Origin: Candidatus Peribacter riflensis | GTDB lineage: Bacteria > Patescibacteriota > Gracilibacteria > Peribacterales > Peribacteraceae | Direction: 5' to 3' | DNA: 32,000 nucleotides | Assembly (NCBI GenBank): GCA_001430755.1 | Contig: CP013062.1 | Span: 180,001-212,000, forward strand | Shown: positions 1,481 through 12,407 of the stretch, piece after piece | Position numbering within the stretch: the first letter of the stretch is position 1 | Layout: each line of letters starts with the position of its first letter | Translations under genes and position numbers: made by a program | The notes under the pieces: generated by a model | What the model was told of the DNA's origin: nothing | Database searches by the model: none | Seen by the model: the letters and a program-made list of their open reading frames with translations, nothing else

Positions 1481-1987
1481 ATGGAATTGCTCTTAAAACT
1501 CGGCATTAACTGGCAGCTGCTCATCGCGCAGATCGTGAACTTTGCGATCGTGATGGGAGTGCTGGGGTTCTTCCTCTACCGTCCCATCCTGAATTTGCTC
1601 GATGCCCGCGCAGAGCGCATCCGCAAGGCCATGGAAGATGCCAAGCGCGTCGAGAACCAGATGCAGGAGCTGCACAAGCTCCGCGAGGAAGAGATGAAGC
1701 GTCTCGATAAAGAGAGCGGCGAGTATTTCGACCGCATGCGCAAAGAGGCCCAGGCCCTGCACGAAGAGATGATGGCCACTGCCAAGAAAGAGGCGGAAAC
1801 AACGCTCCAGAACGCGCTCAAGCGCATCGATGAGGAGCGCCGGGTCATGATGGAGGATGTCATGAAGACCGTGAATACCGTGATCGTACGCATGACGGAG
1901 AAGCTCCTCGAGCGGGAGTTCACCCCCGCCGACCAGAAGCGTATTCAGGAGAACCTCGTTGCAGAACTTCCCCAGTCGATGCGATGA
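1481..1987 (+). CDS. atpF: F0F1 ATP synthase subunit b
   Basis: 168 aa. One N-terminal TM helix followed by a long charged coiled-coil-like region. Operon position. Its stop overlaps the atpH start (ATGA at 1984-1987). Confidence 0.85.
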   Translation: MELLLKLGINWQLLIAQIVNFAIVMGVLGFFLYRPILNLLDARAERIRKAMEDAKRVENQMQELHKLREEEMKRLDKESGEYFDRMRKEAQALHEEMMATAKKEAETTLQNALKRIDEERRVMMEDVMKTVNTVIVRMTEKLLEREFTPADQKRIQENLVAELPQSMR

Positions 1988-2397
1988 AGGTGTCTGCCGC
2001 TTCCCTTGCCCGGGCGTTCGTAGAGATCGCAAAGACGATTCCGGAAGGGGACGTGGGTGCGCTTGGGGAGGCTGCCGCCCAGATGCTGATTCAGCACGGA
2101 CTGACCAGGCAGTCACATGCCTTTCTGCGTCTCGTGGAGCGCGAGTGGCTCAAGCGCGATGGCGCAGTGCCCGTGCGCATCACGACCGTATCGGGCCATG
2201 CCGGCCCTCTGGCGAAGGAGATTGCGGATACTGTCGAGAAGGCTCTCAAGCGCGCCTGTCATATCGAGGAGCGTGCCGACCCAGCGCTGATGGGGGGCGT
2301 CCTCCTCCAGGTCGGCGATGAGCGGTACGATGCCACCCTTCGTGGTGCCCTCTCGGTGCTCGCAGCCCGCCTCGCCGAGCCCGTCTCTGTTTCCTAA
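1984..2397 (+). CDS. atpH: F0F1 ATP synthase subunit delta (OSCP), short form of 137 aa
   Basis: The C-terminal 'DPALMGGVLLQVGDERYDATLRGAL' matches the OSCP signature. Located between the b and alpha genes. Confidence 0.8.
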   Translation: MKVSAASLARAFVEIAKTIPEGDVGALGEAAAQMLIQHGLTRQSHAFLRLVEREWLKRDGAVPVRITTVSGHAGPLAKEIADTVEKALKRACHIEERADPALMGGVLLQVGDERYDATLRGALSVLAARLAEPVSVS

Positions 2398-2437
2398 CCC
2401 TCCCCCTAACCCTCACCCTATCCCTCCCCCCTAACCC
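2393..2437 (+). repeat. C-rich hexamer tract (CCCTAA/CCCTCA/CCCTCC/CCCTAT) filling the atpH-atpA spacer
   Basis: The sequence 'cctaaccctccccctaaccctcaccctatccctcccccctaaccc' runs directly into the atpA ATG at 2438. It is the complement of the GGGTKA units seen at 5008, 19755 and 23757. Confidence 0.75.
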
Positions 2438-3967
2438 ATGTCCGTCAGCCAGACACTCCTCAAGGCCCTCGAAGATCGCGTCGCATCCTATCGCAAGGAT
2501 GTGAAGCATGAGCACGTCGGCACGGTGCTCTCGGTCGGTGACGGTATCGCCACGGTTTCGGGCCTCTCGAAAGTCGGTGCCGCAGAAATGATCGATTTCG
2601 GCAAGGGCGTGATGGGGGTGGCGTTCAACCTCGAAGAGGATCACGTGGGTGTGATCGTGCTTGGGGATGACAGCAAGATCAAAGAGGGCGATACGGCCAA
2701 ATCGACCGGCCAGATTCTTTCGGTGCCCGTGGGCGAGGCAATGATCGGACGCGTGGTGAATCCGCTGGGCGAGGCCAAAGACGGCGGCTCGGCCCTTGCG
2801 AGCAAGCAGCGCTACCCGATCGAAAAGATCGCCCCCCGCGTTATCGAGCGCAAGTCCGTGACCGTGCCGCTCCAGACCGGTATCAAGGCGATCGATGCAC
2901 TCATCCCCATCGGGCGCGGCCAGCGCGAACTCATCATCGGCGACCGCCAGACGGGCAAGACCGCCGTGGCGCTCGATGCCATCATCAACCAGAAAGAAAC
3001 GCAGAACACGGATCGCCCTGTTATCTGCATCTACGTCGCGATTGGCCAGAAGGAATCCAAAGTCGCCAAGATCGTCTCGGAACTCAAAAAGCACGGTGCC
3101 ATGGAGTACACCATCGTCGTCTCGGCCGGCGCATCAGAGCCCGCGTCGCTCTCGTACATCGCCCCCTTCGCGGGATGCGCCATGGGCGAGTACTTCCTCG
3201 ATCAGGGCAAAGACGTGCTCTGCATCTACGACGATCTCTCGAAGCACGCCTGGGCCTACCGCCAGGTCTCGCTGCTGCTCCGTCGTCCTCCGGGACGCGA
3301 GGCCTACCCGGGCGACGTGTTCTACCTCCACTCCAGGCTCCTCGAGCGTGCGTGCTGCCTGGATGAGAAGCATGGCGGTGGATCGCTCACGGCTCTGCCG
3401 ATCATCGAGACGCAGGCCGGCGACATCTCCGCCTACATCCCCACGAACGTCATTTCGATCACCGACGGACAGATCTACCTCGAATCCGATCTGTTCTACA
3501 AGGGCATCCGTCCCGCGCTCAACATCGGTCTTTCGGTCTCGCGTGTGGGATCCGCCGCACAGCGCAAATCCATGAAGAAAGTTGCGGGGCGCCTCCGCAT
3601 CGACCTGGCCCAGTACCGCGAGCTGGCGGTGTTCGCGCAGTTCGGATCTGACCTCGATGCCGAAACCAAAAAGCAGCTCGACCGGGGAGCGCGCTTAACC
3701 GAGCTCCTCAAGCAGGAGCAGTACGTTCCGGTACCCGTGGCGGAGCAGGTGTCCGTGCTCTACGCCGGTGTGAACAGCCTGCTCGATGACGTGCCCGTGG
3801 ATCAGATCCGTCGCTTTGAACGGGAGTTCGTTTCGTTCCTCCGCAACAAGCATCCGCAGCTCTTAAAGGAGCTCACGGCCGAGATCAAGCCCGAGACGGA
3901 AGAGACGCTGAAGAGGCTTCTTCAAACGTTTAAGGCCGAAGCAGGATTTATTTCTGTTTCCAAGTGA
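2438..3967 (+). CDS. atpA: F0F1 ATP synthase subunit alpha
   Basis: 509 aa. Walker A 'GDRQTGKT' and '[21 protein letters not shown]'. Full-length alpha pattern. Confidence 0.97.
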
Positions 3968-4030
3968 GAATTATGAATGAGGAATTATGAATTAAGTATG
4001 GCGATATCATGCGTTATTCATAATTCTCAC
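3964..4030. repeat. AT-rich inverted repeat (hairpin) in the atpA-atpG spacer
   Basis: GTGAGAATTATGAAT (3964-3978) is the exact reverse complement of ATTCATAATTCTCAC (4016-4030). The left arm includes the atpA stop codon. Tandem GAGGAATTATGAAT units lie inside, and a pyrimidine tract 'ttcttcattcttcattcctttcctc' follows. Confidence 0.85.
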
Positions 4031-4077
4031 TTCTTCATTCTTCATTCCTTTCCTCACTCCAACCACTCGCTCAATAC

Positions 4078-5004
4078 ATGGCTCGCAGTCTCAGAGACTT
4101 ACGGCGCAAAATGAAGGCCATCAAGGCCACCCACCAGGTGACCAAGGCCATGGAGCTCGTGGCGGCTTCCAAGATGCGCCGCGCGGTCTCGAATGCGCAG
4201 AAGCTGCGGCACTACGCCTTCCTCGCGTGGCAGGTATTGCAGAAGCTGGCCGATGTGCATCCCGAATTGCATCCCTACCTGCAGAAACGAGAGCCGAAGA
4301 AGATCCTCGCGATCCTCTTCACACCCGATCGCGGAATGTGCGGCAACCTGAATGCCCAGTTGCTGCGCACGACCACGCAGTACATTCAGGGCCTCAAGAA
4401 GCTCCCCACGTTCGAGTCCGTCGAATTCATTGCGGTCGGCCGCAAGGGCCAGCACTTTCTGCCGCGCATGAACCAGAAGGTGGTTGCAGCCTTCCCGGCC
4501 TTCTCGAGCTACCCCACCTTCAAAGATATCCTGCCCATCGCCCGCATGGCCACCGAGGGCTTTCTTGCGGGAACCTACGACTCCGTCTCGCTCATCTACC
4601 CCGATTTCATCTCGGCCCTGGTCCAGGAATCGACGGTGAAGGTGTTGCTGCCGTTCTCGACGACCGAGCTCAAAGAAATGCTCGAGAGCCTGCTCCCGCG
4701 TAAGTACCGCAAAGAATCGCAGGCCGCCCTCCACGCCGAGGGGGTGGGGGAATACGTCCTGGAGCCTTCGGCCGATGCGATTCTGCAGACCATCCTGCCC
4801 CAACTCACCGAGATCCAGGTCTACCAGGCCATTCTGGAAGCCGGCGCCTCGGAGCACTCTGCGCGGATGGTGGCGATGCGTGCTGCTTCCGACAACGCCA
4901 CGGAGCTCCTGGATGATCTCACTATCGTCTACAACCAGACGCGGCAGGCGAAGATCACCTCAGAGCTCTCGGAGCTGACGGCGGCCAAGGCGGCGCTGGA
5001 GTAG
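4078..5004 (+). CDS. atpG: F0F1 ATP synthase subunit gamma
   Basis: 308 aa. N-terminal 'IKATHQVTKAMELVAASKMRRA' and C-terminal 'NQTRQAKITSELSELTAAKAALE' are typical of gamma. Confidence 0.93.
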   Translation: MARSLRDLRRKMKAIKATHQVTKAMELVAASKMRRAVSNAQKLRHYAFLAWQVLQKLADVHPELHPYLQKREPKKILAILFTPDRGMCGNLNAQLLRTTTQYIQGLKKLPTFESVEFIAVGRKGQHFLPRMNQKVVAAFPAFSSYPTFKDILPIARMATEGFLAGTYDSVSLIYPDFISALVQESTVKVLLPFSTTELKEMLESLLPRKYRKESQAALHAEGVGEYVLEPSADAILQTILPQLTEIQVYQAILEAGASEHSARMVAMRAASDNATELLDDLTIVYNQTRQAKITSELSELTAAKAALE

Positions 5005-5007
5005 GAA

Positions 5008-5028
5008 TAGGGTGAGGGTTAGGGCAGG
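5008..5028. repeat. GGGTKA-type G-tract motif copy
   Basis: 'tagggtgagggttagggcagg' lies immediately after the atpG stop codon, in the convergent spacer before the minus-strand gene ending at 5039. Confidence 0.6.
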
Positions 5029-5038
5029 ATTCCAGTCT

Positions 5039-5956
5039 CTATTTGGCAGCCGGCGCCGTTTTCGTGACGATGCGGATATCCATGCCTTTCGCTGTGTACT
5101 CCTGTGTCTGCTGCCTCAACGCAGTGATGATTTCCTGCGCAATCTGCGGACGGGCAGGATCCGAAAAGACGATGAACGTAAACTGCGGGAGCTTCTCGCC
5201 GTAGGCATGGCTGCCTGAAGCGATCTTGAGGGCCAGGAGGGCCTCTTCGATGGCGTGCGGAACGTTGTGCGGATCAGAGACCGTGAAGGCGTTGATGCCT
5301 GGCAGTCTCTGCAGTCGGCCGTCGGTACAGTCCACTGCTGCCGCAATGCCGGTGTGCGGCCCTTTCGTCATGGGCGCATCGCCGGTGTGCACGGCGTTGA
5401 TGCCGCGGGCTTTGAGTCGTTCGACGATGGTACCGCGCTGGAAGTTTTCTGCTGCCTTGTCGGGGTTGGGGGACTCTCCGAAAGCGATTCCGGCAGCACC
5501 GCAGGCGATGTGTGAGCTTAACTTTACCGTGATGGAATGGAGAGGCCGTTCCTTCCCAAGTGCGGTGACGTAGGTCACGACGGCATCGACGAGTTCATCT
5601 ACGTTCTTCCAGAGCACGCCCGATCCGGCCATGCGGAGCACGCGCTTGCCGGACTGCGTGGTCGCCTGCAGAAGCATGCGCTCGTCGATGCAGACCATCT
5701 CCACTTCGGTGACGGGTGCATTGCTGCAGTCGAAACATTCCTGCCACTGCTTCTCGTGGTCATCGAGCCATTCCTCGGGCTTCTGATTGAAGGGGTGGGC
5801 GAGTTCTTTTGCGAGCAGCGGAACCATATCGGGGTGGTGTCCGTGTTCTGCAGCGTGATCATCGTGTGACTGAGCAGTGGCCATATCGGGGAGGAGGGAA
5901 GTGGTGAGGGCGGCTGTACCCGTCAGGGTTTCTTTCAGGAAATCTCTGCGCGTCAT
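5039..5956 (-). CDS. Tat-signal protein with a beta-carbonic-anhydrase-like Cys/Asp/Arg...His/Cys zinc motif
   Basis: The ATG at 5956 is preceded by AGGAGGA (4-nt spacer). N-terminus 'MTRRDFLKETLTGTAALTTSLLPDMATA' is a twin-arginine signal. It is followed by the His-rich 'HDDHAAEHGHHPD'. 'VCIDERM', 'VLRMAGSG' and 'SSHIACGAAG' follow the beta-CA pattern CxDxR...RxAG...HxxCG. The longer ORF start at 6052 was rejected. Confidence 0.6.
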   Translation of the reverse strand: MTRRDFLKETLTGTAALTTSLLPDMATAQSHDDHAAEHGHHPDMVPLLAKELAHPFNQKPEEWLDDHEKQWQECFDCSNAPVTEVEMVCIDERMLLQATTQSGKRVLRMAGSGVLWKNVDELVDAVVTYVTALGKERPLHSITVKLSSHIACGAAGIAFGESPNPDKAAENFQRGTIVERLKARGINAVHTGDAPMTKGPHTGIAAAVDCTDGRLQRLPGINAFTVSDPHNVPHAIEEALLALKIASGSHAYGEKLPQFTFIVFSDPARPQIAQEIITALRQQTQEYTAKGMDIRIVTKTAPAAK

Positions 5957-6140
5957 GGCATCCTCCTGGGATGTGTGCCCGGTTTTCTGTGGGGGATCTT
6001 CGTCATGATACGGCACTTCAGTCATGGTGATGAGGGAAGAATTTCGAGGCATACTAAGGATTGCAGCAAGACTTTCAAGGCTCTAGGTGCAAAGAAATCC
6101 TAACATTGAATAAAAAAATTGTTCAAACAAGAGGTCGGAG

Positions 6141-6171
6141 AAAAACGGGCCACCACGAGGATCGTGGCCCG
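6141..6171 (-). terminator. rho-independent terminator of copA
   Basis: Read on the minus strand: CGGGCCAC, a 10-nt loop, GTGGCCCG, then TTTTT (plus-strand A-run 6141-6145). It starts 17 nt after the copA stop codon. Confidence 0.75.
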
Positions 6172-6187
6172 TTCCGAAACCGTGTTA

Positions 6188-9100
6188 TCACTTTTGAATC
6201 CTCAGCGTCGCAGGCACGAAATGCAGCTGGTCGAGGATGGTATCCGTCTTCGGGAGGATGCCTGCGATCAGCACACGGTTGCCGAAGAAGCCGTCGATGA
6301 CGTCGCCTGCATTGGTGAAGAGACCGTTTTCGATCATCATCTGCGCCTCGCTCGACCCCACGAAGATGGGGGTGGTGCGCTTGCCGTCGATGATGCGCGG
6401 CTCAAGGGCGAGGAGAGTGATGATCGAACGGAAGGTGGGGGGAATAGAAGCCGGAGTCGTCATGAACGCAAACAGCTTCAGATCGCCTTCATCATTCACG
6501 CCGAGGAGGGTTGCGCCCGAGGCAATGACCTCGAACGAGAGCCGGTTCACGATGTGTGCGAGATCGAGTGCGGTGCCCGTGGGTTTCAGGATGCCGATGA
6601 CCGTGGGAGTGGGCATGCCGAGGAATTCCTGGACCGTGTCGCCGATGCTGGAGTATTCGCCTTCTTCCCGCATGGCTGCCCCCTCCAATGAGCCGAGCAC
6701 CAGTTGCCGGTCACTCAGGGTCGCGGTCGTTCCCTCCTCAGCGGGGAGCGAAGCCGGGAGCGTATCTGTGCCGATGAGGAACTCCGGATCGGATCCCTCG
6801 TAGGCGATCACCGCCGTCTTGGGCGTAATGAGAGCGCTCACCTCCTGTACCGTCTGTGCGGGGATGCCCGTGCCCGGGCCGCTCTTCATGAGCGATGAGC
6901 TGAAGGCCGCAAATTCCAGAAAGAGCGCCGTGAAGGCGATCATCAGCACGAAGGGCGCCAGGAAGGAAATGAAATTGCGCTTGCGGGGCTTGAAGAAACG
7001 GATGAGCAGAGAGTTCGTCACGACGGAGATCGAGCTGAAAGCCATGGCGAGGCCCGCAAGCTCCGGCTGCAGCAGAAGCCCGAAGGTCGTATAGAACGCG
7101 CGGGCGGCGATGGGGATGCCGATCACGTTGTAGAAGAGCGCGAAGAACATGTTCTGCCGGATTTTGGACATGGTTTCCCGGGCGAGTTCGAGGGCGGTCA
7201 CAACGTCATTCAGGTCGTCTTTGATAATCACAATGCCGCCTGTTTCCATCGCCACATCCGTGCCCGAGCCCATGGCTATCCCTACATCGGCTTGTGCGAG
7301 TGCGGGGGCGTCGTTGATGCCGTCACCCACCATGGCGACCTTCTTGCCGCCTTCCTGGAGCTTCTTCACCTCGTTGGCCTTATCTTCGGGCAGCACCTCG
7401 GCGAGCACGGTGGTGATGCCGATCTCGCGGGCGATGGCGTTGGCGGTACGTTCGTTATCGCCCGAGATCATGACGATCTGCAGGCCCATGTTTTTCAGCG
7501 TCTGCACGGCTTCGCGTGATGTTGCTTTGACGGTGTCTGCAACGGCAACGGCGCCGAGAAGCTCTTTTTCCGTTGCGAGGATCATCACGGTTTTACCCTG
7601 CTCCTCCAGCTTGCGAATTTTGCGATCCTCCCGGCTGAAGGGGAGCCCCGCGATCTCGGTCATGAGCAGCCGGTTGCCGAAGTAGTACTTGGTGCCGTGG
7701 ATCACGCCCTCGATGCCGTGACCGGGGATGGCCGCAAATTTTTCAACATCGCCCGTCTCGATTCCTTCTTCTGTGGCATGGTTGGTGATCGCTTCGGCGA
7801 GGGGATGCTCGGAGGAGCGCTCCAGGCTTGCGGCGATTTCCACGATGTCTTCTTCTGCCATCGAACCGAACGTGAGAACATCGGTCACCTCAGGCTTGCC
7901 GTGCGTGAGCGTGCCGGTCTTGTCGAAGATGATGGTCTGGATCCTGCTCGCGGCCTCCAACGGCTCTCCGCCCTTGATGAGAATGCCGCGTTCGGCGCCC
8001 TTGCCGGTGCCCACCATGAGGGCGGTGGGTGTTGCGAGCCCGAGTGCGCAGGGGCAGGCGATGACGAGCACCGACGTGAAGGCCATGAGCGCGAACGAGA
8101 GCGACGCGCCGAAGACGAAGTACCACAGGCCGAAGGTCAGGAGTGCGATCAGGATAACAGCCGGAACGAACCACGCGGATGTGCGGTCGGCGAAGCCCTG
8201 AATGGGGGCCTTGCTGCCCTGTGCCTCCTCGATCAGACGGATGATCTGCGCGAGGGTCGATTCCTCGCCCACGCGTTCTGCCCGGAATTCGAAGCTTCCG
8301 TTCTTGTTGATGGTGGCTCCAATCACTTTATCGCCTGCATTTTTTTCTACAGGAATACTCTCGCCGGTCAGGAGGGATTCATCGACCGACGAATGCCCTT
8401 TGGTGATGGTGCCGTCCACGGGCACGGTCTCACCCGGACGCACGAGGATGATGTCGCCCACGGCCACGTCGTCGACGGGGATATCCACGGTCTTGCCGTT
8501 GCGGACCACGCGTGCGGTCTTGGCCCTGAGGCCCATCAGTTTGCGGATGGCGTCGGAAGTGCGTCCTTTCGCTTTGGTCTCGAGCCACTTGCCGAGCAGC
8601 ACAAACGTGATGAGGAACGCGGAGGTCTCGAAGTAGAGCTCTGGGATTTTGGCTCCCTGCAGCCCCAGAACTGTATTGTGTGCGGAGGCGAACGCGATGA
8701 AGTTGAACACGCTGTACACGTACGCCGCCGATGTGCCGATGGCGATGAGGCTATCCATGGAGAATGTCCACATTCTCAGGCTCGACCAGAATCCCTTGTA
8801 GAAGCCGGCACCCGCGATGAATTGCACCGGCGTGGCAAGTACGAGCGAGACGACACCGACGTACGCCGGAAACACCACGGCTCCCGGCAGCCACGGGAGA
8901 AAATCCAGCAGCATGAAGTAGAGCATCGGCGCACTCAGGACGAAGCTGAAGAGAAACCCGCGGCGGTAGTGGCGGATTTCCGCTTCGCGCTTGCGCCGGT
9001 CAAAATCGCGATCCTTCTCATCAACCAGAGTGGCCGTGTAACCGGCCTTCTGCACTGCCCGAACAAGATGGTCCACATTCGTCTTCGATGCGTCGAAGAG

Positions 9101-9805
9101 GACAGAAGCCTTCTCGGCGGCGAAATTCACGTGCGCCTGATTCACGCCCTGAACTTTCTTGAGTGATCGTTCAATGAGCATGGCACAGGAGGAACAGTGC
9201 ATGCCGCTCAGTGAGAGAGACACCTTCTGCGTTCCGGAGGAAGCGGGGGCATCCATGGCGGTGTCGAGGGGAAGTGTCGCCTGCAGTGTACCAGCGGTCC
9301 CTGCGGGAATGGACCGTTTGTCACCGGCATGGTGGAGCGCGTCCAAGAGGGAGGAGAAATTGGCGGATTGCACGAGGTGCGTGAGAAAATTCTTCGCCGA
9401 CTCGTCTCCTCCGGGAATGCTCAGTTCCGCATGCTTCTTTTGCGAGATTTTGCCTTCGAAGAGCGGTTTTCCGTGTTCATCTTCGACGACTGTTCCCTCG
9501 GCTTCCACGGAGGACGTGAGTTGCATCTTCAGCGGCTTGCCTGCCGCCACTGTCTTGCGCTTGATCGTGATGTCTGCGGGGGCTTCCTGTTCTTCATGCA
9601 ACACCTTGGCGCTATAGCCTGCGCGGCCGATCGCCTCGAGAATGGCATCGAGTGTGAGGGGCGCATCGAAGGCGATGTGTGCAGCACCCGATGTGTCGAT
9701 GGTGACCTCGCGGATCCCTTTCAGATCGTCGAGTTCCCTGCGGATCAGCTTGATGCAGGAATCACAGTGGATACCTGCGATATGGAGAGCAACCGATTGA
9801 GACAT
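6188..9805 (-). CDS. copA: copper-translocating P1B-type ATPase with an unusual 260-aa C-terminal extension
   Basis: 1205 aa. Two HMA domains ('AGIHCDSC', 'SGMHCSSC'), '[13 protein letters not shown]' (CPC), 'DKTGTLT', 'SEHPLA' and 'GDGINDAP'. After the usual end ('[14 protein letters not shown]') there is an extra TM helix and a duplicated soluble module (nt 6191-6970). Confidence 0.95.
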
Positions 9806-9922: not shown

Positions 9923-10195
9923 TCACTTGTTCGCCATCCTCGTCACCGCCAGGATCTCATCGATCATCTTCTGCTTCTTTGCGGGGCTGCTCGTTTCGAT
10001 CGCACTCTTGAAACAGCTGTTCAGGTGCCCCTCCAACAGGAGAAGATGGGCTGATTTGAGTAGCCCGATGACCGCCAGGTTCTGTTGCAAAATATCGATG
10101 CAGTAGCGGTCTCCCTCCACCATCTCGATGATCTTTCTGAGGAGACTCTGGGCTTTCTTGTATCCGATGAGTGTTTTCTGCTTCTGTTCGGTCAT
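9923..10195 (-). CDS. csoR: CsoR/RcnR-family metal-sensing transcriptional repressor
   Basis: The ATG at 10195 inside ORF 9923..10321 gives 90 aa: 'MTEQKQKTLIGYKKAQSLLRKIIEMVEGDRYCIDILQQ...LLLLEGHLNSC'. This shows the DUF156 helical pattern with the C...H...C ligand arrangement. Confidence 0.85.
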   Translation of the reverse strand: MTEQKQKTLIGYKKAQSLLRKIIEMVEGDRYCIDILQQNLAVIGLLKSAHLLLLEGHLNSCFKSAIETSSPAKKQKMIDEILAVTRMANK

Positions 10196-10273
10196 GATGG
10201 GGAGAGGACGATGCAGAGACCGTACCATGACCTTGGGGGGAGGTAAAGGTGGAAAACAGTTCTTCTGCTTTCC

Positions 10274-10299
10274 GCCCTGCCGGATTTCTCCGGCAGGGC
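10274..10299 (-). other. GC-rich stem-loop between the copZ-like gene and csoR
   Basis: GCCCTGCCGGA (10274-10284), a 4-nt loop, then TCCGGCAGGGC (10289-10299). On the sense (minus) strand the loop reads GAAA (GNRA). No adjacent U-run, so it is not a classical terminator. Confidence 0.4.
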
Positions 10300-10325
10300 A
10301 GGAGGACAGAGCGGTGATCACAGGG

Positions 10326-10559
10326 CTACGACAGGGTCCGGACGTGGTAGGTTTCGTTGAGGTCTTCGACGGCTTTTGTCCATGCCGGAAGGTCGAAGTG
10401 ACGGTCGTGGTCGAGTGTGACCGTTTTCTTGTCTACGTTCACGTCGGTCTGCTGAATGGAAGGAAAGTCCTGGCTCACGTCTTTGATGAGGGCTGCACAG
10501 GATGCGCAGTGGATGCCGGGGATGGAAACAACAGTTTTTATGGGTGAGGGGGGAATCAG
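10326..10559 (-). CDS. copZ: CopZ-like HMA copper chaperone ORF lacking an ATG/GTG/TTG start
   Basis: My hand translation of the minus strand gives 'IKTVVSIPGIHCASCAALIKDVSQDFPSIQQTDVNVDKKTVTLDHDRHFDLPAWTKAVEDLNETYHVRTLS*' (stop TAG at 10326-10328). It is absent from the ORF track because the frame has no canonical start. Candidate starts are CTG at 10559 (overlapping the upstream TGA as CTGA), ATT at 10556 and ATA at 10541. Confidence 0.6.
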   Translation of the reverse strand: MIPPSPIKTVVSIPGIHCASCAALIKDVSQDFPSIQQTDVNVDKKTVTLDHDRHFDLPAWTKAVEDLNETYHVRTLS

Positions 10560-11959
10560 ATGACCGTAAAGGAGCCGCGGACCATGCCCATGGAACAGCT
10601 GAAGGGAATGCGGCCGGGGCTCTGCGGCGTGAATTCGAAGAGGTTGTCTCCGGCTGCCAGCACCTTCTGAATGCCGAGAGAGGGGATCACGAAGCCGCGC
10701 GTGCAGCCTCCTGCCTGTGTGCCGTCGACGTGAAAACGCACGGGAATGCCCGAGCGGATTACGATGTCACTCGGCTCGTAGCCGGAACCCGTGACGACCA
10801 TCGAGACCTCCTGCACGCCGTTCTGCACTGGTGCGGCGGGGGTCGGGACAGGCGCGTTCTGCGTGCCGAATGCGGAGGCGAATGTGCGGGGAACATCGAT
10901 ACCGACGAGGGCGAGACCGCTGTTCAAATTGTAGAGCGAGAGCACAAGGACCAGCGTTCCTGCGAAACGAAGGAACAGGCGTGAGGAGGATCCTCTGGCA
11001 TTTGCCGAAATGTAGCTGATGCCGAGCAGGGCGGGCAGCGTGCCGAGGGCGAAGATGAACATCGTCAGCGCACCCGAGAGAAAGCTTCCTGAGGCGAGTG
11101 CCACGAGTTGCAGCGACTGTGTGAATCCGCAGGGCAGGAAGAACGTGAGCGCTCCCAGGGCGAAGGGCGCTGCGGGATGGTCATTCTCCGAGAGGTTCGC
11201 GATCCAGTGGGCGAAGGCCTTGGGCGGCCGGATCGGAAAGCTCCCCTTCGGGATTACTTTTAAGATCGTGAGGGCGAGGTAGAGCATGATCAGGGCGATT
11301 GCCACGCTCATGTACCCGGTCATCTGCGCATTGAGCGTGATGGACTGGCCCAGCAGTCCCACGAGCCCGCCCAGGACAAAGTACGAGATGAGGCGGCCGG
11401 CATTGAACTGCAGCAGGGGCCGGAGGCGCTGCACGGGCGTTTCGCTGCCGTGCATCTCATTGTGCTTTGCGGCCATGGCAAGGAGCAGGCCGCCCGTGAC
11501 GGCAAGACAGCTGCTCATGCCGGCCACGAGGCCGATGACGAGCACGCCGCCGAATGTAAGGGCTCCTGCGGTCGACGGGGCGAGGGACACCAGGTCGTAC
11601 GCGCTCAGAATCTTGTAGAGGGCGAAGATGATGAGCAGTGCGCCGCCGATCTCCAGCCATTTCTGCTGGTCCGGTGCATCCGGCTCCTGTCGTAAGCGGC
11701 AGTCCTGCCGCGCAGTGACGATTTCCTCTTCTGTGACCACGCGGTACCCGGCATCGCGGATGACGGATTCCAGTTGTGCGAAAGAGGGGAGGTCATGTGC
11801 CGAAGCCGTAATCTCCGCCGTGCCCTTGCGGTGGTGCACTGCAACGTGGAGGACGCCGGACACTGCTTTGAGCTTGCGTTCGAGCAGGAGCTCGCAGCTG
11901 CCGCACGTCATCCCTCCGATGCGGAGGGTGAGTTGCCGTTTTTCAGTGGATGAAGACAT
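10556..11959 (-). CDS. HMA domain / DsbD_2 (TauE-SafE-like) membrane domain / C-terminal cupredoxin-like domain metal-handling protein
   Basis: The ATG at 11959 gives 'MSSSTEKRQLTLRIGGMTCGSCELL' (HMA). The polytopic core carries 'SSCLAVTGG' and 'FFLPCGFTQSL'. The C-terminal beta domain has His/Cys/Met ('RFHVDG', 'GGCTRGF', 'FSCSMGMVRG'). The 39-aa upstream ORF extension was rejected. Confidence 0.8.
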   Translation of the reverse strand: MSSSTEKRQLTLRIGGMTCGSCELLLERKLKAVSGVLHVAVHHRKGTAEITASAHDLPSFAQLESVIRDAGYRVVTEEEIVTARQDCRLRQEPDAPDQQKWLEIGGALLIIFALYKILSAYDLVSLAPSTAGALTFGGVLVIGLVAGMSSCLAVTGGLLLAMAAKHNEMHGSETPVQRLRPLLQFNAGRLISYFVLGGLVGLLGQSITLNAQMTGYMSVAIALIMLYLALTILKVIPKGSFPIRPPKAFAHWIANLSENDHPAAPFALGALTFFLPCGFTQSLQLVALASGSFLSGALTMFIFALGTLPALLGISYISANARGSSSRLFLRFAGTLVLVLSLYNLNSGLALVGIDVPRTFASAFGTQNAPVPTPAAPVQNGVQEVSMVVTGSGYEPSDIVIRSGIPVRFHVDGTQAGGCTRGFVIPSLGIQKVLAAGDNLFEFTPQSPGRIPFSCSMGMVRGSFTVI

Positions 11960-12017
11960 GGGGGAAGAGAGAAAGAAGGAAATGGAAGAGAGTGCGCGCT
12001 TGGCGTCTTCTTCCTTC

Positions 12018-12407
12018 CTACTGTCGCAGAACCACCATGGAGATTGAAGGGGGCGAGAGCGGTGGATGCTCCGCAATGGGAAGAATCAGATCATTTCCCG
12101 CAAAGCACGCGCTGCACGAGGCAGGGGGGGTTGCCGTGGGGGAGGAGGGGATTTCAAGGGGTGACAGGTCCGATGAGCGTTGCGTAGCCTGCGACAGACA
12201 GTGTCCGAGACAGGGCACATCACCGGTTGCCGGTGCGGGGGCCTCTTGGTCGTGCGGCGCACATCCGGCGTGGGATGCGGGCGCGGAGGCAAGGGCGACC
12301 GACATCATGATCTCGGGCAGCGTGTCTTGCGCCGAAGCCGTCTGCACACGGCAGCTCGTTCCGAGGACGATGTGAAAGCCGAAGGCGATGAGGAAGATCG
12401 TACGCAT
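12018..12407 (-). CDS. small secreted Cys/His/Pro-rich protein (possible metal binding)
   Basis: The ATG at 12407 gives the signal-like 'MRTIFLIAFGFHIVLGTSCRVQTASA'. The mature part contains 'SHAGCAPHD', 'PCLGHC' and 'SCSAC'. It is co-oriented with, and packed inside, the copper cluster. No homology recognised. Confidence 0.4.
   Translation of the reverse strand: MRTIFLIAFGFHIVLGTSCRVQTASAQDTLPEIMMSVALASAPASHAGCAPHDQEAPAPATGDVPCLGHCLSQATQRSSDLSPLEIPSSPTATPPASCSACFAGNDLILPIAEHPPLSPPSISMVVLRQ

Follow-up and report, generated by a model that had tools for sequence, protein, structure and literature searches.

The window analysed here is a 32,000-nucleotide stretch of the Candidatus Peribacter riflensis genome (contig CP013062.1, positions 180,001 to 212,000 of the forward strand), to which all coordinates without a contig name refer. 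It encodes a true P1B-1 Cu+-ATPase of the CopA type that carries one additional transmembrane (TM) helix and a duplicated soluble domain behind its catalytic core. The protein is an ordinary CopA core joined to a member of an undescribed, recurrent family of accessory ectodomains, which is found both fused to P1B ATPases and as a free-standing protein encoded beside them. The periplasmic domains of MacB-type transporters appear to be the nearest known relatives of this module in fold, and the module may act where Cu(I) leaves the pump.

A CopA pump with a ninth helix and a duplicated soluble domain

The open reading frame (ORF) of the pump is divided as follows (aa, amino acids; the tail is its last 260 aa).

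6188..9805, minus strand: complete 1205-aa ORF, CopA (P1B-1 Cu+-ATPase) with TM9 and a duplicated ectodomain (translation, Pfam, NCBIfam)
9035..9805, minus strand: N-terminal region with two HMA metal-binding domains (aa 1-70 and 197-257, CxxC in each) and a linker (Pfam HMA 2.5e-27, 2 stretches)
6974..8998, minus strand: P1B-1 ATPase core, aa 270-944, with eight TM helices and MxxSS motifs (Pfam, NCBIfam, hydropathy)
6905..6973, minus strand: extra ninth TM helix (TM9), aa 945-967 (hydropathy, AlphaFold model, free-standing homologues)
6824..6904, minus strand: linker between TM9 and ectodomain, tail aa 23-49 (AlphaFold confidence)
6524..6823, minus strand: ectodomain repeat 1, tail aa 50-149, G-S-L-E-G-A-A-M ... 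G-D (alignments, model, BLASTP)
6191..6523, minus strand: ectodomain repeat 2, tail aa 150-260, G-S-S-E-A-Q-M-M ... G-D-V-I-D-G-F-F-G (alignments, BLASTP, single-repeat model)

All of the P1B-1 hallmarks listed in the initial annotation, which was made from the DNA letters and their translations, were found in the translation and in the Pfam and NCBIfam matches. The CxxC motifs of the two HMA domains read GIHCDSC and GMHCSSC, and the linker of approximately 120 to 125 aa between the domains (aa 71-196; 9218-9595, minus strand) has no family match. The ATPase core matches the Pfam families E1-E2_ATPase (2.7e-63) and Hydrolase (HAD; 1.3e-39), the sequences FDKTGTLT and VGDGINDAP can be read in it, and the motifs of the Cu+ site are present as CPC in M4, N-x6-YN-x4-P in M5, and M-x2-SS-x5-N in M6. 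The protein scored 638.6 bits against the NCBIfam copper subfamily model TIGR01511 (cutoff, 397) and also matched TIGR01525. The NCBIfam copper and heavy-metal P1B models span aa 350-936, and the CopA equivalog model stops at aa 941. Since the CopA and P1B models end at aa 934-941, the pump would ordinarily terminate near there, in agreement with the normal end near aa 945 proposed in the initial annotation. The frame instead continues for 260 aa at nucleotides (nt) 6191-6970. This continuation had been placed correctly, with the stop codon (6188-6190) included in the start given as 6188. Members of the CopA family have eight TM helices and a cytoplasmic C terminus, whereas this protein has a ninth hydrophobic helix (aa 945-967) after M6; that helix is an addition to the CopA architecture and no ground for excluding the pump from the family.

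The tail was modeled with AlphaFold2 using an alignment of 65 sequences, and the model was compared with the PDB by Foldseek. The whole tail model has a mean predicted local distance difference test score (pLDDT) of 94.2 and a predicted template modeling score of 0.84, and in it a helix at tail residues 5-28 leads through a low-confidence linker to a pair of similar alpha/beta units. TM9 is modeled as a helix with a pLDDT of 92-95, aa 945-963 have the top Kyte-Doolittle score of the entire protein (2.45), and the extra hydrophobic helix reported after the CopA end is thus confirmed by hydropathy and by the model. Only a six-residue basic loop, KPRKRN, separates M6 from TM9, which is equivalent in the alignment to the N-terminal anchor of the free-standing homologues. 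In the linker, the pLDDT falls below 50 at tail residues 28-30, with block means of 62 (aa 21-30) and 77 (aa 31-40), so the linker is probably flexible, and this low confidence points to a tethered domain rather than a rigid mechanotransmission stalk. The soluble domain of approximately 230 aa comprises two homologous alpha/beta units and contains no cysteine. The internal duplication seen in the initial annotation was borne out, as the two repeats share 37% identity over 52 aa (BLASTP, E 1e-7) and are both kept as such across the 65 family members in the alignment.

The fusion is real and recurrent. Its closest relative is from a Candidatus Peribacter metagenome-assembled genome (MAG; L010), the only genome found in a single-protein scan of the GTDB species representatives. 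The MAG encodes a 1224-aa ORF with an identical junction, an intact frame, and the same flanking genes, and its tail is 78% identical to that of the window. Between the two proteins, the ratio of nonsynonymous to synonymous substitution rates (dN/dS) is 0.20 over the 260 tail codons and 0.13 in the ATPase core, which indicates that the tail is under purifying selection in the frame read. All ten long homologues scanned are P1B ATPases, or C-terminal fragments thereof, that carry the tail at the C terminus with 25-39% identity. Among the long metagenome homologues scanned, 11 are complete or almost so, and each of these is a P1B ATPase with the tail. P0168, P0170, and P0077 are likewise P1B ATPases (or C-terminal fragments) with the tail, and two more full-length fused members are labeled Patescibacteria group bacterium. 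The question raised in the initial annotation of whether the extension recurs in related genomes is therefore answered by the Peribacter MAG and by every long homologue scanned.

It is hardly credible that the extension is an artefact in which a missed stop codon, a frameshift, or a chimeric assembly joined copA with a separate downstream gene. The occurrence of the module as a free-standing gene and a related contig without CopA upstream (L002) speak for such an origin, but the Peribacter MAG is independent and has the same junction with the frame intact, the long homologues come from different samples, and purifying selection extends across both the junction and the tail. Moreover, the fused subfamily lacks its own start codon and a basic N terminus ahead of TM9. 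A frameshift or assembly artefact was rejected on the basis of the Peribacter junction, the long homologues, and the dN/dS values.

A family of fused and free-standing modules

An exhaustive HMMER search with the tail retrieved 167 cluster representatives at E <= 1e-3. A word-indexed protein search was insensitive here, giving only 4 matches with the single sequence and 19 with a profile. No Pfam or NCBIfam family was matched by the tail alone even at E <= 10, and the tail defines a family that has no model in either database. Family members have a TM anchor followed by two repeats with the pattern G-x-x-E-A-x-M-M ... G-D ... F-G ... G-[IV]-L-x-x-T-x-T-x-x-D-x-x-H. The tail in the window has this organization, and its residues agree with the near-invariant columns, as determined by column counts in two alignments.

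Approximately 70 of the representatives stand alone as proteins of about 260 aa, each with a start codon of its own, a short N terminus, and a TM helix. Every free-standing member that could be placed on a contig was inspected, and the loci were arranged as follows.

L004/L005/L006 (one system; protein named Candidatus Bilamarchaeum sp.): module starts 5 nt after the ATPase (in L004, ATPase at 3831-5996 and module gene at 6001-6798); neighbors Cupredoxin_1, HMA, DsbA-like, and PadR
L007: module overlaps the ATPase end; neighbors HMA, Cupredoxin_1, and DsbA-like
L008/L009 (protein named Nanoarchaeia archaeon): module immediately upstream of the ATPase and overlapping it; neighbors an ArsR-type (HTH_5) regulator and a PCYCGC-domain protein
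L013: module directly downstream of the ATPase; neighbor Cupredoxin_1
L014: module directly downstream of the ATPase; neighbors multicopper oxidase and DsbA-like
L015: module directly downstream of the ATPase; neighbor Fic protein
L016: module one small HMA gene from the ATPase; neighbor HMA
L001: contig too short to show the ATPase; neighbors a cupredoxin-like fragment and an HMA gene

The neighboring ATPases of these split loci are approximately 720 aa long, with CPx, DKTGT, and GDGxND motifs and an ordinary CopA C terminus, and the genes around the module and CopA differ from locus to locus. The two split systems that carry names belong to DPANN archaea, and the two fused proteins that carry names belong to Patescibacteria. 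A module that is fused in one lineage and closely adjacent in another fits the classical pattern for dedicated partners, which argues for this module being a dedicated partner of CopA pumps, and such an arrangement is a strong predictor of physical and functional coupling.

Several members depart from these two forms. P0170 (1377 aa) has approximately 265 aa more beyond the tail (residues ~1113-1377), with HEHP and HTHP motifs and a weak match to CopC (E 0.023, below cutoff); a further metal-related domain outside the cell would fit an extracytoplasmic copper role. In P0141 (304 aa), an HMA domain and the first part of a DsbD_2 membrane domain precede one tail-family repeat; provided that its gene call is complete, this protein would represent another type of fusion partner. 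In cluster P0023, which has 7 members (six of 504 aa and one of 478 aa, on contigs of up to 44.8 kb), the gene calls begin within the ATPase P domain and continue through M5, M6, TM9, and the tail. UGA is read as sense in some groups of the Candidate Phyla Radiation (CPR), and P0023 could be either a split pump gene or a lineage with this reading. On contig L002 (1-210), which holds a 59%-identical relative, homology begins only at FLEFAAFSS, and the preceding 170 bases, which are AT-rich and interrupted by stop codons, contain no CopA. Either this copy is a truncated remnant or the metagenome contig is chimeric.

Fold, location, and possible role in copper exit

In the Foldseek comparison of the whole tail model, the top 14 matches were all MacB-type periplasmic domains, the best being MacB 5gko (E 0.016, probability 0.99), and the others included YbbP, MacAB-TolC, LolCDE, isolated MacB, a Porphyromonas permease domain, and HrtB. 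A single repeat gave LolE, LolC, and MacB as the top seven matches, with query-normalized template modeling scores of 0.39-0.56 and a probability of 0.92 for LolC 7arh_C; repeat 2 modeled alone has a pLDDT of 96.1. At the sequence level, 10 of the 65 relatives touch the Pfam family MacB_PCD (PF12704), with a best E value of 2.2e-5. In P0163, both repeats match MacB_PCD (27.0 bits versus a cutoff of 27), and the best stretch covers profile positions 122-172, which coincide in some members with the conserved 50-aa core of the repeat. The shared core of approximately 50 aa follows the pattern of a strand, a helix, a G-D strand, and a V-x-G-[IV]-L strand. Profile positions 122-172 correspond to residues ~399-456 of Escherichia coli MacB (AQVVVLD...RVIGV...LRVWLPY), and the Sabre subdomain occupies residues 347-465 in Aggregatibacter MacB (PMC5985334). 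With the numbering transfer being approximate, the matched stretch is probably the C-terminal half of the Sabre subdomain. From the models and these partial profile matches, we take the MacB-type periplasmic domains to be the closest known relatives of the module, remotely related to it in fold.

The relationship to FtsX that the initial annotation had also proposed did not hold, and membership in the FtsX or type VII ABC permeases was rejected. The four-TM FtsX domain (PF02687) is absent from the ORF and the tail even at E <= 10, and E. coli MacB, LolC, and LolE all match it. The ectodomain is not inserted between TM1 and TM2 on two stalk helices and has instead one N-terminal anchor, a flexible linker, and a free C terminus. 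Neither the pump ORF nor the neighboring genes of the module at L004-L009 and L013-L016 contained an ABC ATPase domain (ABC_tran).

The eight helices of CopA leave its N and C termini in the cytoplasm (PMC7558416), and a ninth helix after a six-residue basic loop would carry the tail to the outer side of the membrane. Cysteine is essentially absent from the ectodomain family (0.03% Cys), the free-standing members start with a signal-anchor-like helix, and the nearest folds found by Foldseek are all extracytoplasmic domains. Outside location, as put forward in the initial annotation, is the reading most consistent with the hydropathy of TM9, the KPRKRN loop, the CopA topology, the cysteine-free domain, and these folds. 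The opposite arrangement, in which the hydrophobic segment fails to cross the membrane and leaves the tail as a cytoplasmic regulatory or metal-binding domain as in some archaeal and plant P1B pumps, appears very improbable. P1B ATPases with C-terminal cytoplasmic metal-binding domains are indeed known (PMC10654040), but the segment has the strongest TM score of the protein, KPRKRN lies on its M6 side, a signal-anchor-like helix opens the free-standing members, and the domain contains no cysteine, which sets it apart from cytoplasmic Cu(I) sites, and has its nearest folds outside the cytoplasm.

The motifs conserved in each repeat are G-x-x-E-A-x-M-M-[RK]-x-E, G-D, F-F-G, G-[IV]-L, and T-x-T-x-L-D-(M-M)-H-F-x-P. 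Conservation of four residues, given for repeat 1 and repeat 2 among 65 sequences, is as follows.

E96 / E208: conserved in 60 / 62
M100 / M212: conserved in 61 / 62
D136 / D247: conserved in 64 / 65
H139 / H250: conserved in 60 / 57

The family consensus reads MM and DMMH at these motifs, and the ectodomain in the window has just two histidines, both at the H139/H250 positions. Sites formed by methionine and histidine are the usual Cu(I) chemistry outside the cytoplasm. In E. coli, CusF binds Cu(I) by one His and two Met residues and takes copper directly from CopA (PMC7558416). The idea of an exit-side copper hand-off, raised in the initial annotation, is plausible, and it is strengthened by the free-standing homologues encoded beside CopA and by the conserved Met/His motifs.

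M6 lines the Cu+ release pathway in Legionella CopA, and the short loop between M6 and TM9 would force TM9 to lie beside M6. In the mechanism that we propose, TM9 would cross the membrane from inside to outside after the six-residue basic loop, and the flexible linker would tether the cysteine-free, two-repeat domain on the outer face near M6. The tethered domain may then receive the Cu(I) leaving the pump, or it may dock exported receivers, such as a cupredoxin-domain protein, a multicopper oxidase, or a DsbA-like protein. The candidate ligands in each repeat are the Glu/Met-Met helix and the Thr-x-Thr-x-x-Asp-(Met-Met)-His loop. The module would thus fill the role that soluble CusF has for E. 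coli CopA, in cells with neither an outer membrane nor a Cus system. That the tail is such a tethered exit-side Cu(I) acceptor, or a docking and hand-off module of CopA, is a reading to which we give slightly less than an even chance. A more specific version is possible but more doubtful: the module would be the first known accessory module of P1B pumps, a membrane-tethered Met/His Cu(I) acceptor derived from a duplicated MacB-type periplasmic unit, fused in Patescibacteria and a separate subunit in DPANN archaea, that takes copper directly from the pump exit and passes it to exported cuproproteins or oxidases.

Several observations weigh against a copper-accepting module of MacB-type origin. 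MacB-type domains are usually protein-docking or substrate-cavity elements and not metal sites. The copy in the window is poorer in methionine than the family consensus, with A-M in place of M-M in repeat 1 and DLAH and DQLH in place of DMMH. The topology is drawn from hydropathy and analogy only. The Foldseek scores are weak (E 0.016-0.8, template modeling scores of 0.26-0.56, and root mean square deviations of 5-9 A), and none reaches E <= 1e-3. With the family profile, hmmsearch detected no match in E. coli MacB, LolC, or LolE, and hhalign against the same three proteins gave nothing (probability 0.2%), which is a weak negative as the three-sequence alignment was poor. A search of the family profile against PDB sequences returned only chance-level matches, among which the YtrF permease (E 0.095) is suggestive and not significant. 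The MacB-like ectodomain of the initial annotation therefore stands in part. The Pfam comparison failed for the window tail, which stays short of the MacB_PCD gathering score with no match at E <= 10, and the hhalign result was null; the Foldseek ranking, weak as its values are (E >= 0.016), and the 10 relatives that touch MacB_PCD support the resemblance.

The main rival of the Cu(I)-acceptor reading is a metal-free accessory subunit or docking platform, which would stabilize or mature the pump, like the Na,K-ATPase beta subunit, CDC50, and KdpC, or recruit an exported partner, like the ectodomains of FtsX, LolC, and YbbP, with the conserved residues forming an interface. We consider this unlikely but of real weight. 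Known MacB-type domains are partner-binding platforms (PMC5985334), single-pass subunits with outside domains occur in other P-type families (PMC10654040), and several of the consensus methionines are missing from the window protein. Exported partners are encoded nearby as well, including cupredoxin, multicopper oxidase, DsbA-like, and twin-arginine translocation (TAT)-signal proteins; these neighbors, however, vary between loci, whereas the module and CopA are constant. In addition, invariant polar residues together with Met-Met and His motifs, present in each half, are more usual in a ligand site than in an interface. A gating or mechanotransmission device, in which the movement of M6 and TM9 during the E1-E2 cycle is passed to the ectodomain, which then gates the exit or powers a reaction in the periplasm as MacB-type transporters do, is improbable. 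It would accord with the resemblance to MacB periplasmic domains and with the position of TM9 just six residues after M6, but mechanotransmission in MacB depends on a pair of long, rigid stalk helices by which the domain is held at its two ends (PMC5985334). The module has a single anchor followed by a low-confidence linker and a free C terminus, and it also occurs as a separate polypeptide.

The copper gene cluster and comparison with known systems

The genes and elements around the pump in the window are as follows.

6133..6181, minus strand: GC-rich, terminator-like hairpin with UUUUU behind it, closing the copA transcript just past the stop codon (folding; dG -27.6 kcal/mol, z -3.0)
9923..10321, minus strand: CsoR-type metal-sensing repressor, directly upstream of the pump (Pfam Trns_repr_metal 9e-16)
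10556..12076, minus strand: HMA-DsbD_2-Cupredoxin_1 membrane protein of 506 aa in the same cluster (Pfam)
5039..6052, minus strand: protein of 337 aa downstream of the pump, with a twin-arginine signal (TRRDFLK) and a stretch rich in His (HDDHAAEHGHHPDM) (sequence; no Pfam match)

The hairpin after the copA stop codon was not called by a consensus terminator scan. Genes for Cupredoxin_1 and HMA proteins also flank the split systems at the other (archaeal) loci. A homologue of the 337-aa protein (31% identity, E 6e-34) lies at the same position downstream of the fusion in the Peribacter MAG (L010 6945-7976). The 337-aa TAT protein may be an exported copper-related partner, and its membership in the system is uncertain. 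The copper cluster adjoins genes for the delta, alpha, and gamma subunits of the F-type ATP synthase (1984-5004, plus strand), and these neighbors recur in the Peribacter MAG as 308-aa and 509-aa ORFs, which agrees with a Peribacter-like origin of the window.

How Cu(I) leaves a P1B pump without re-entry or damage is understood mainly in E. coli, where soluble CusF docks on CopA. No counterpart is known from cells that lack an outer membrane, nor from the very small CPR bacteria and DPANN archaea. The module is a small, defined, and well-folding domain (pLDDT 94-96) suited to direct tests of exit-side copper transfer. If the proposed role is true, P1B pumps would join the P-type families that have an extracytoplasmic subunit, and the MacB-like ectodomain unit would have been reused outside ABC transporters.

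A full-text literature search retrieved no paper in which P1B ATPases are connected with an extracytoplasmic domain at the C terminus, MacB-like or otherwise, and the remark in the initial annotation that no described P-type ATPase carries such an ectodomain holds within that search. Among the passages that a term search brought up from a 2023 review of P-type ATPases, accessory subunits are mentioned for other families and not for the heavy-metal P1B pumps (PMC10654040). The pump agrees with the CopA proteins of Legionella, Archaeoglobus, and E. coli in its complete catalytic core, its pair of N-terminal HMA domains, its CPC, YN, and MxxSS motifs, and its CsoR-regulated copper cluster. Canonical CopA has eight TM helices and a cytoplasmic C terminus and is described without an accessory subunit, whereas the protein in the window has a ninth helix and a 230-aa domain that is predicted to lie outside.

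The periplasmic domains of MacB, LolC, LolE, YbbP, and HrtB are the best and almost the only structural matches of the module, share its core of approximately 50 aa, and are extracytoplasmic, as the module is predicted to be. They differ in that the module is duplicated, is anchored by one helix at its N terminus where they sit between TM1 and TM2, and is accompanied by neither an FtsX TM domain nor an ABC ATPase; the E-A-x-M-M and T-x-T-x-x-D-x-x-H motifs are specific to the CopA-tail family and are not those of MacB-type domains. The Na,K-ATPase beta subunit, CDC50, and KdpC resemble the module in having a single anchor and an extracytoplasmic domain and in being obligately tied to one pump family (PMC10654040), but they have no sequence or fold relation to it. 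CusF is alike in its proposed role as an exit-side acceptor with Met/His chemistry (PMC7558416). CusF, however, is a soluble OB-fold protein that works with CusCBA in diderms, whereas the candidate acceptor described here has another fold and is tethered or fused to the pump.

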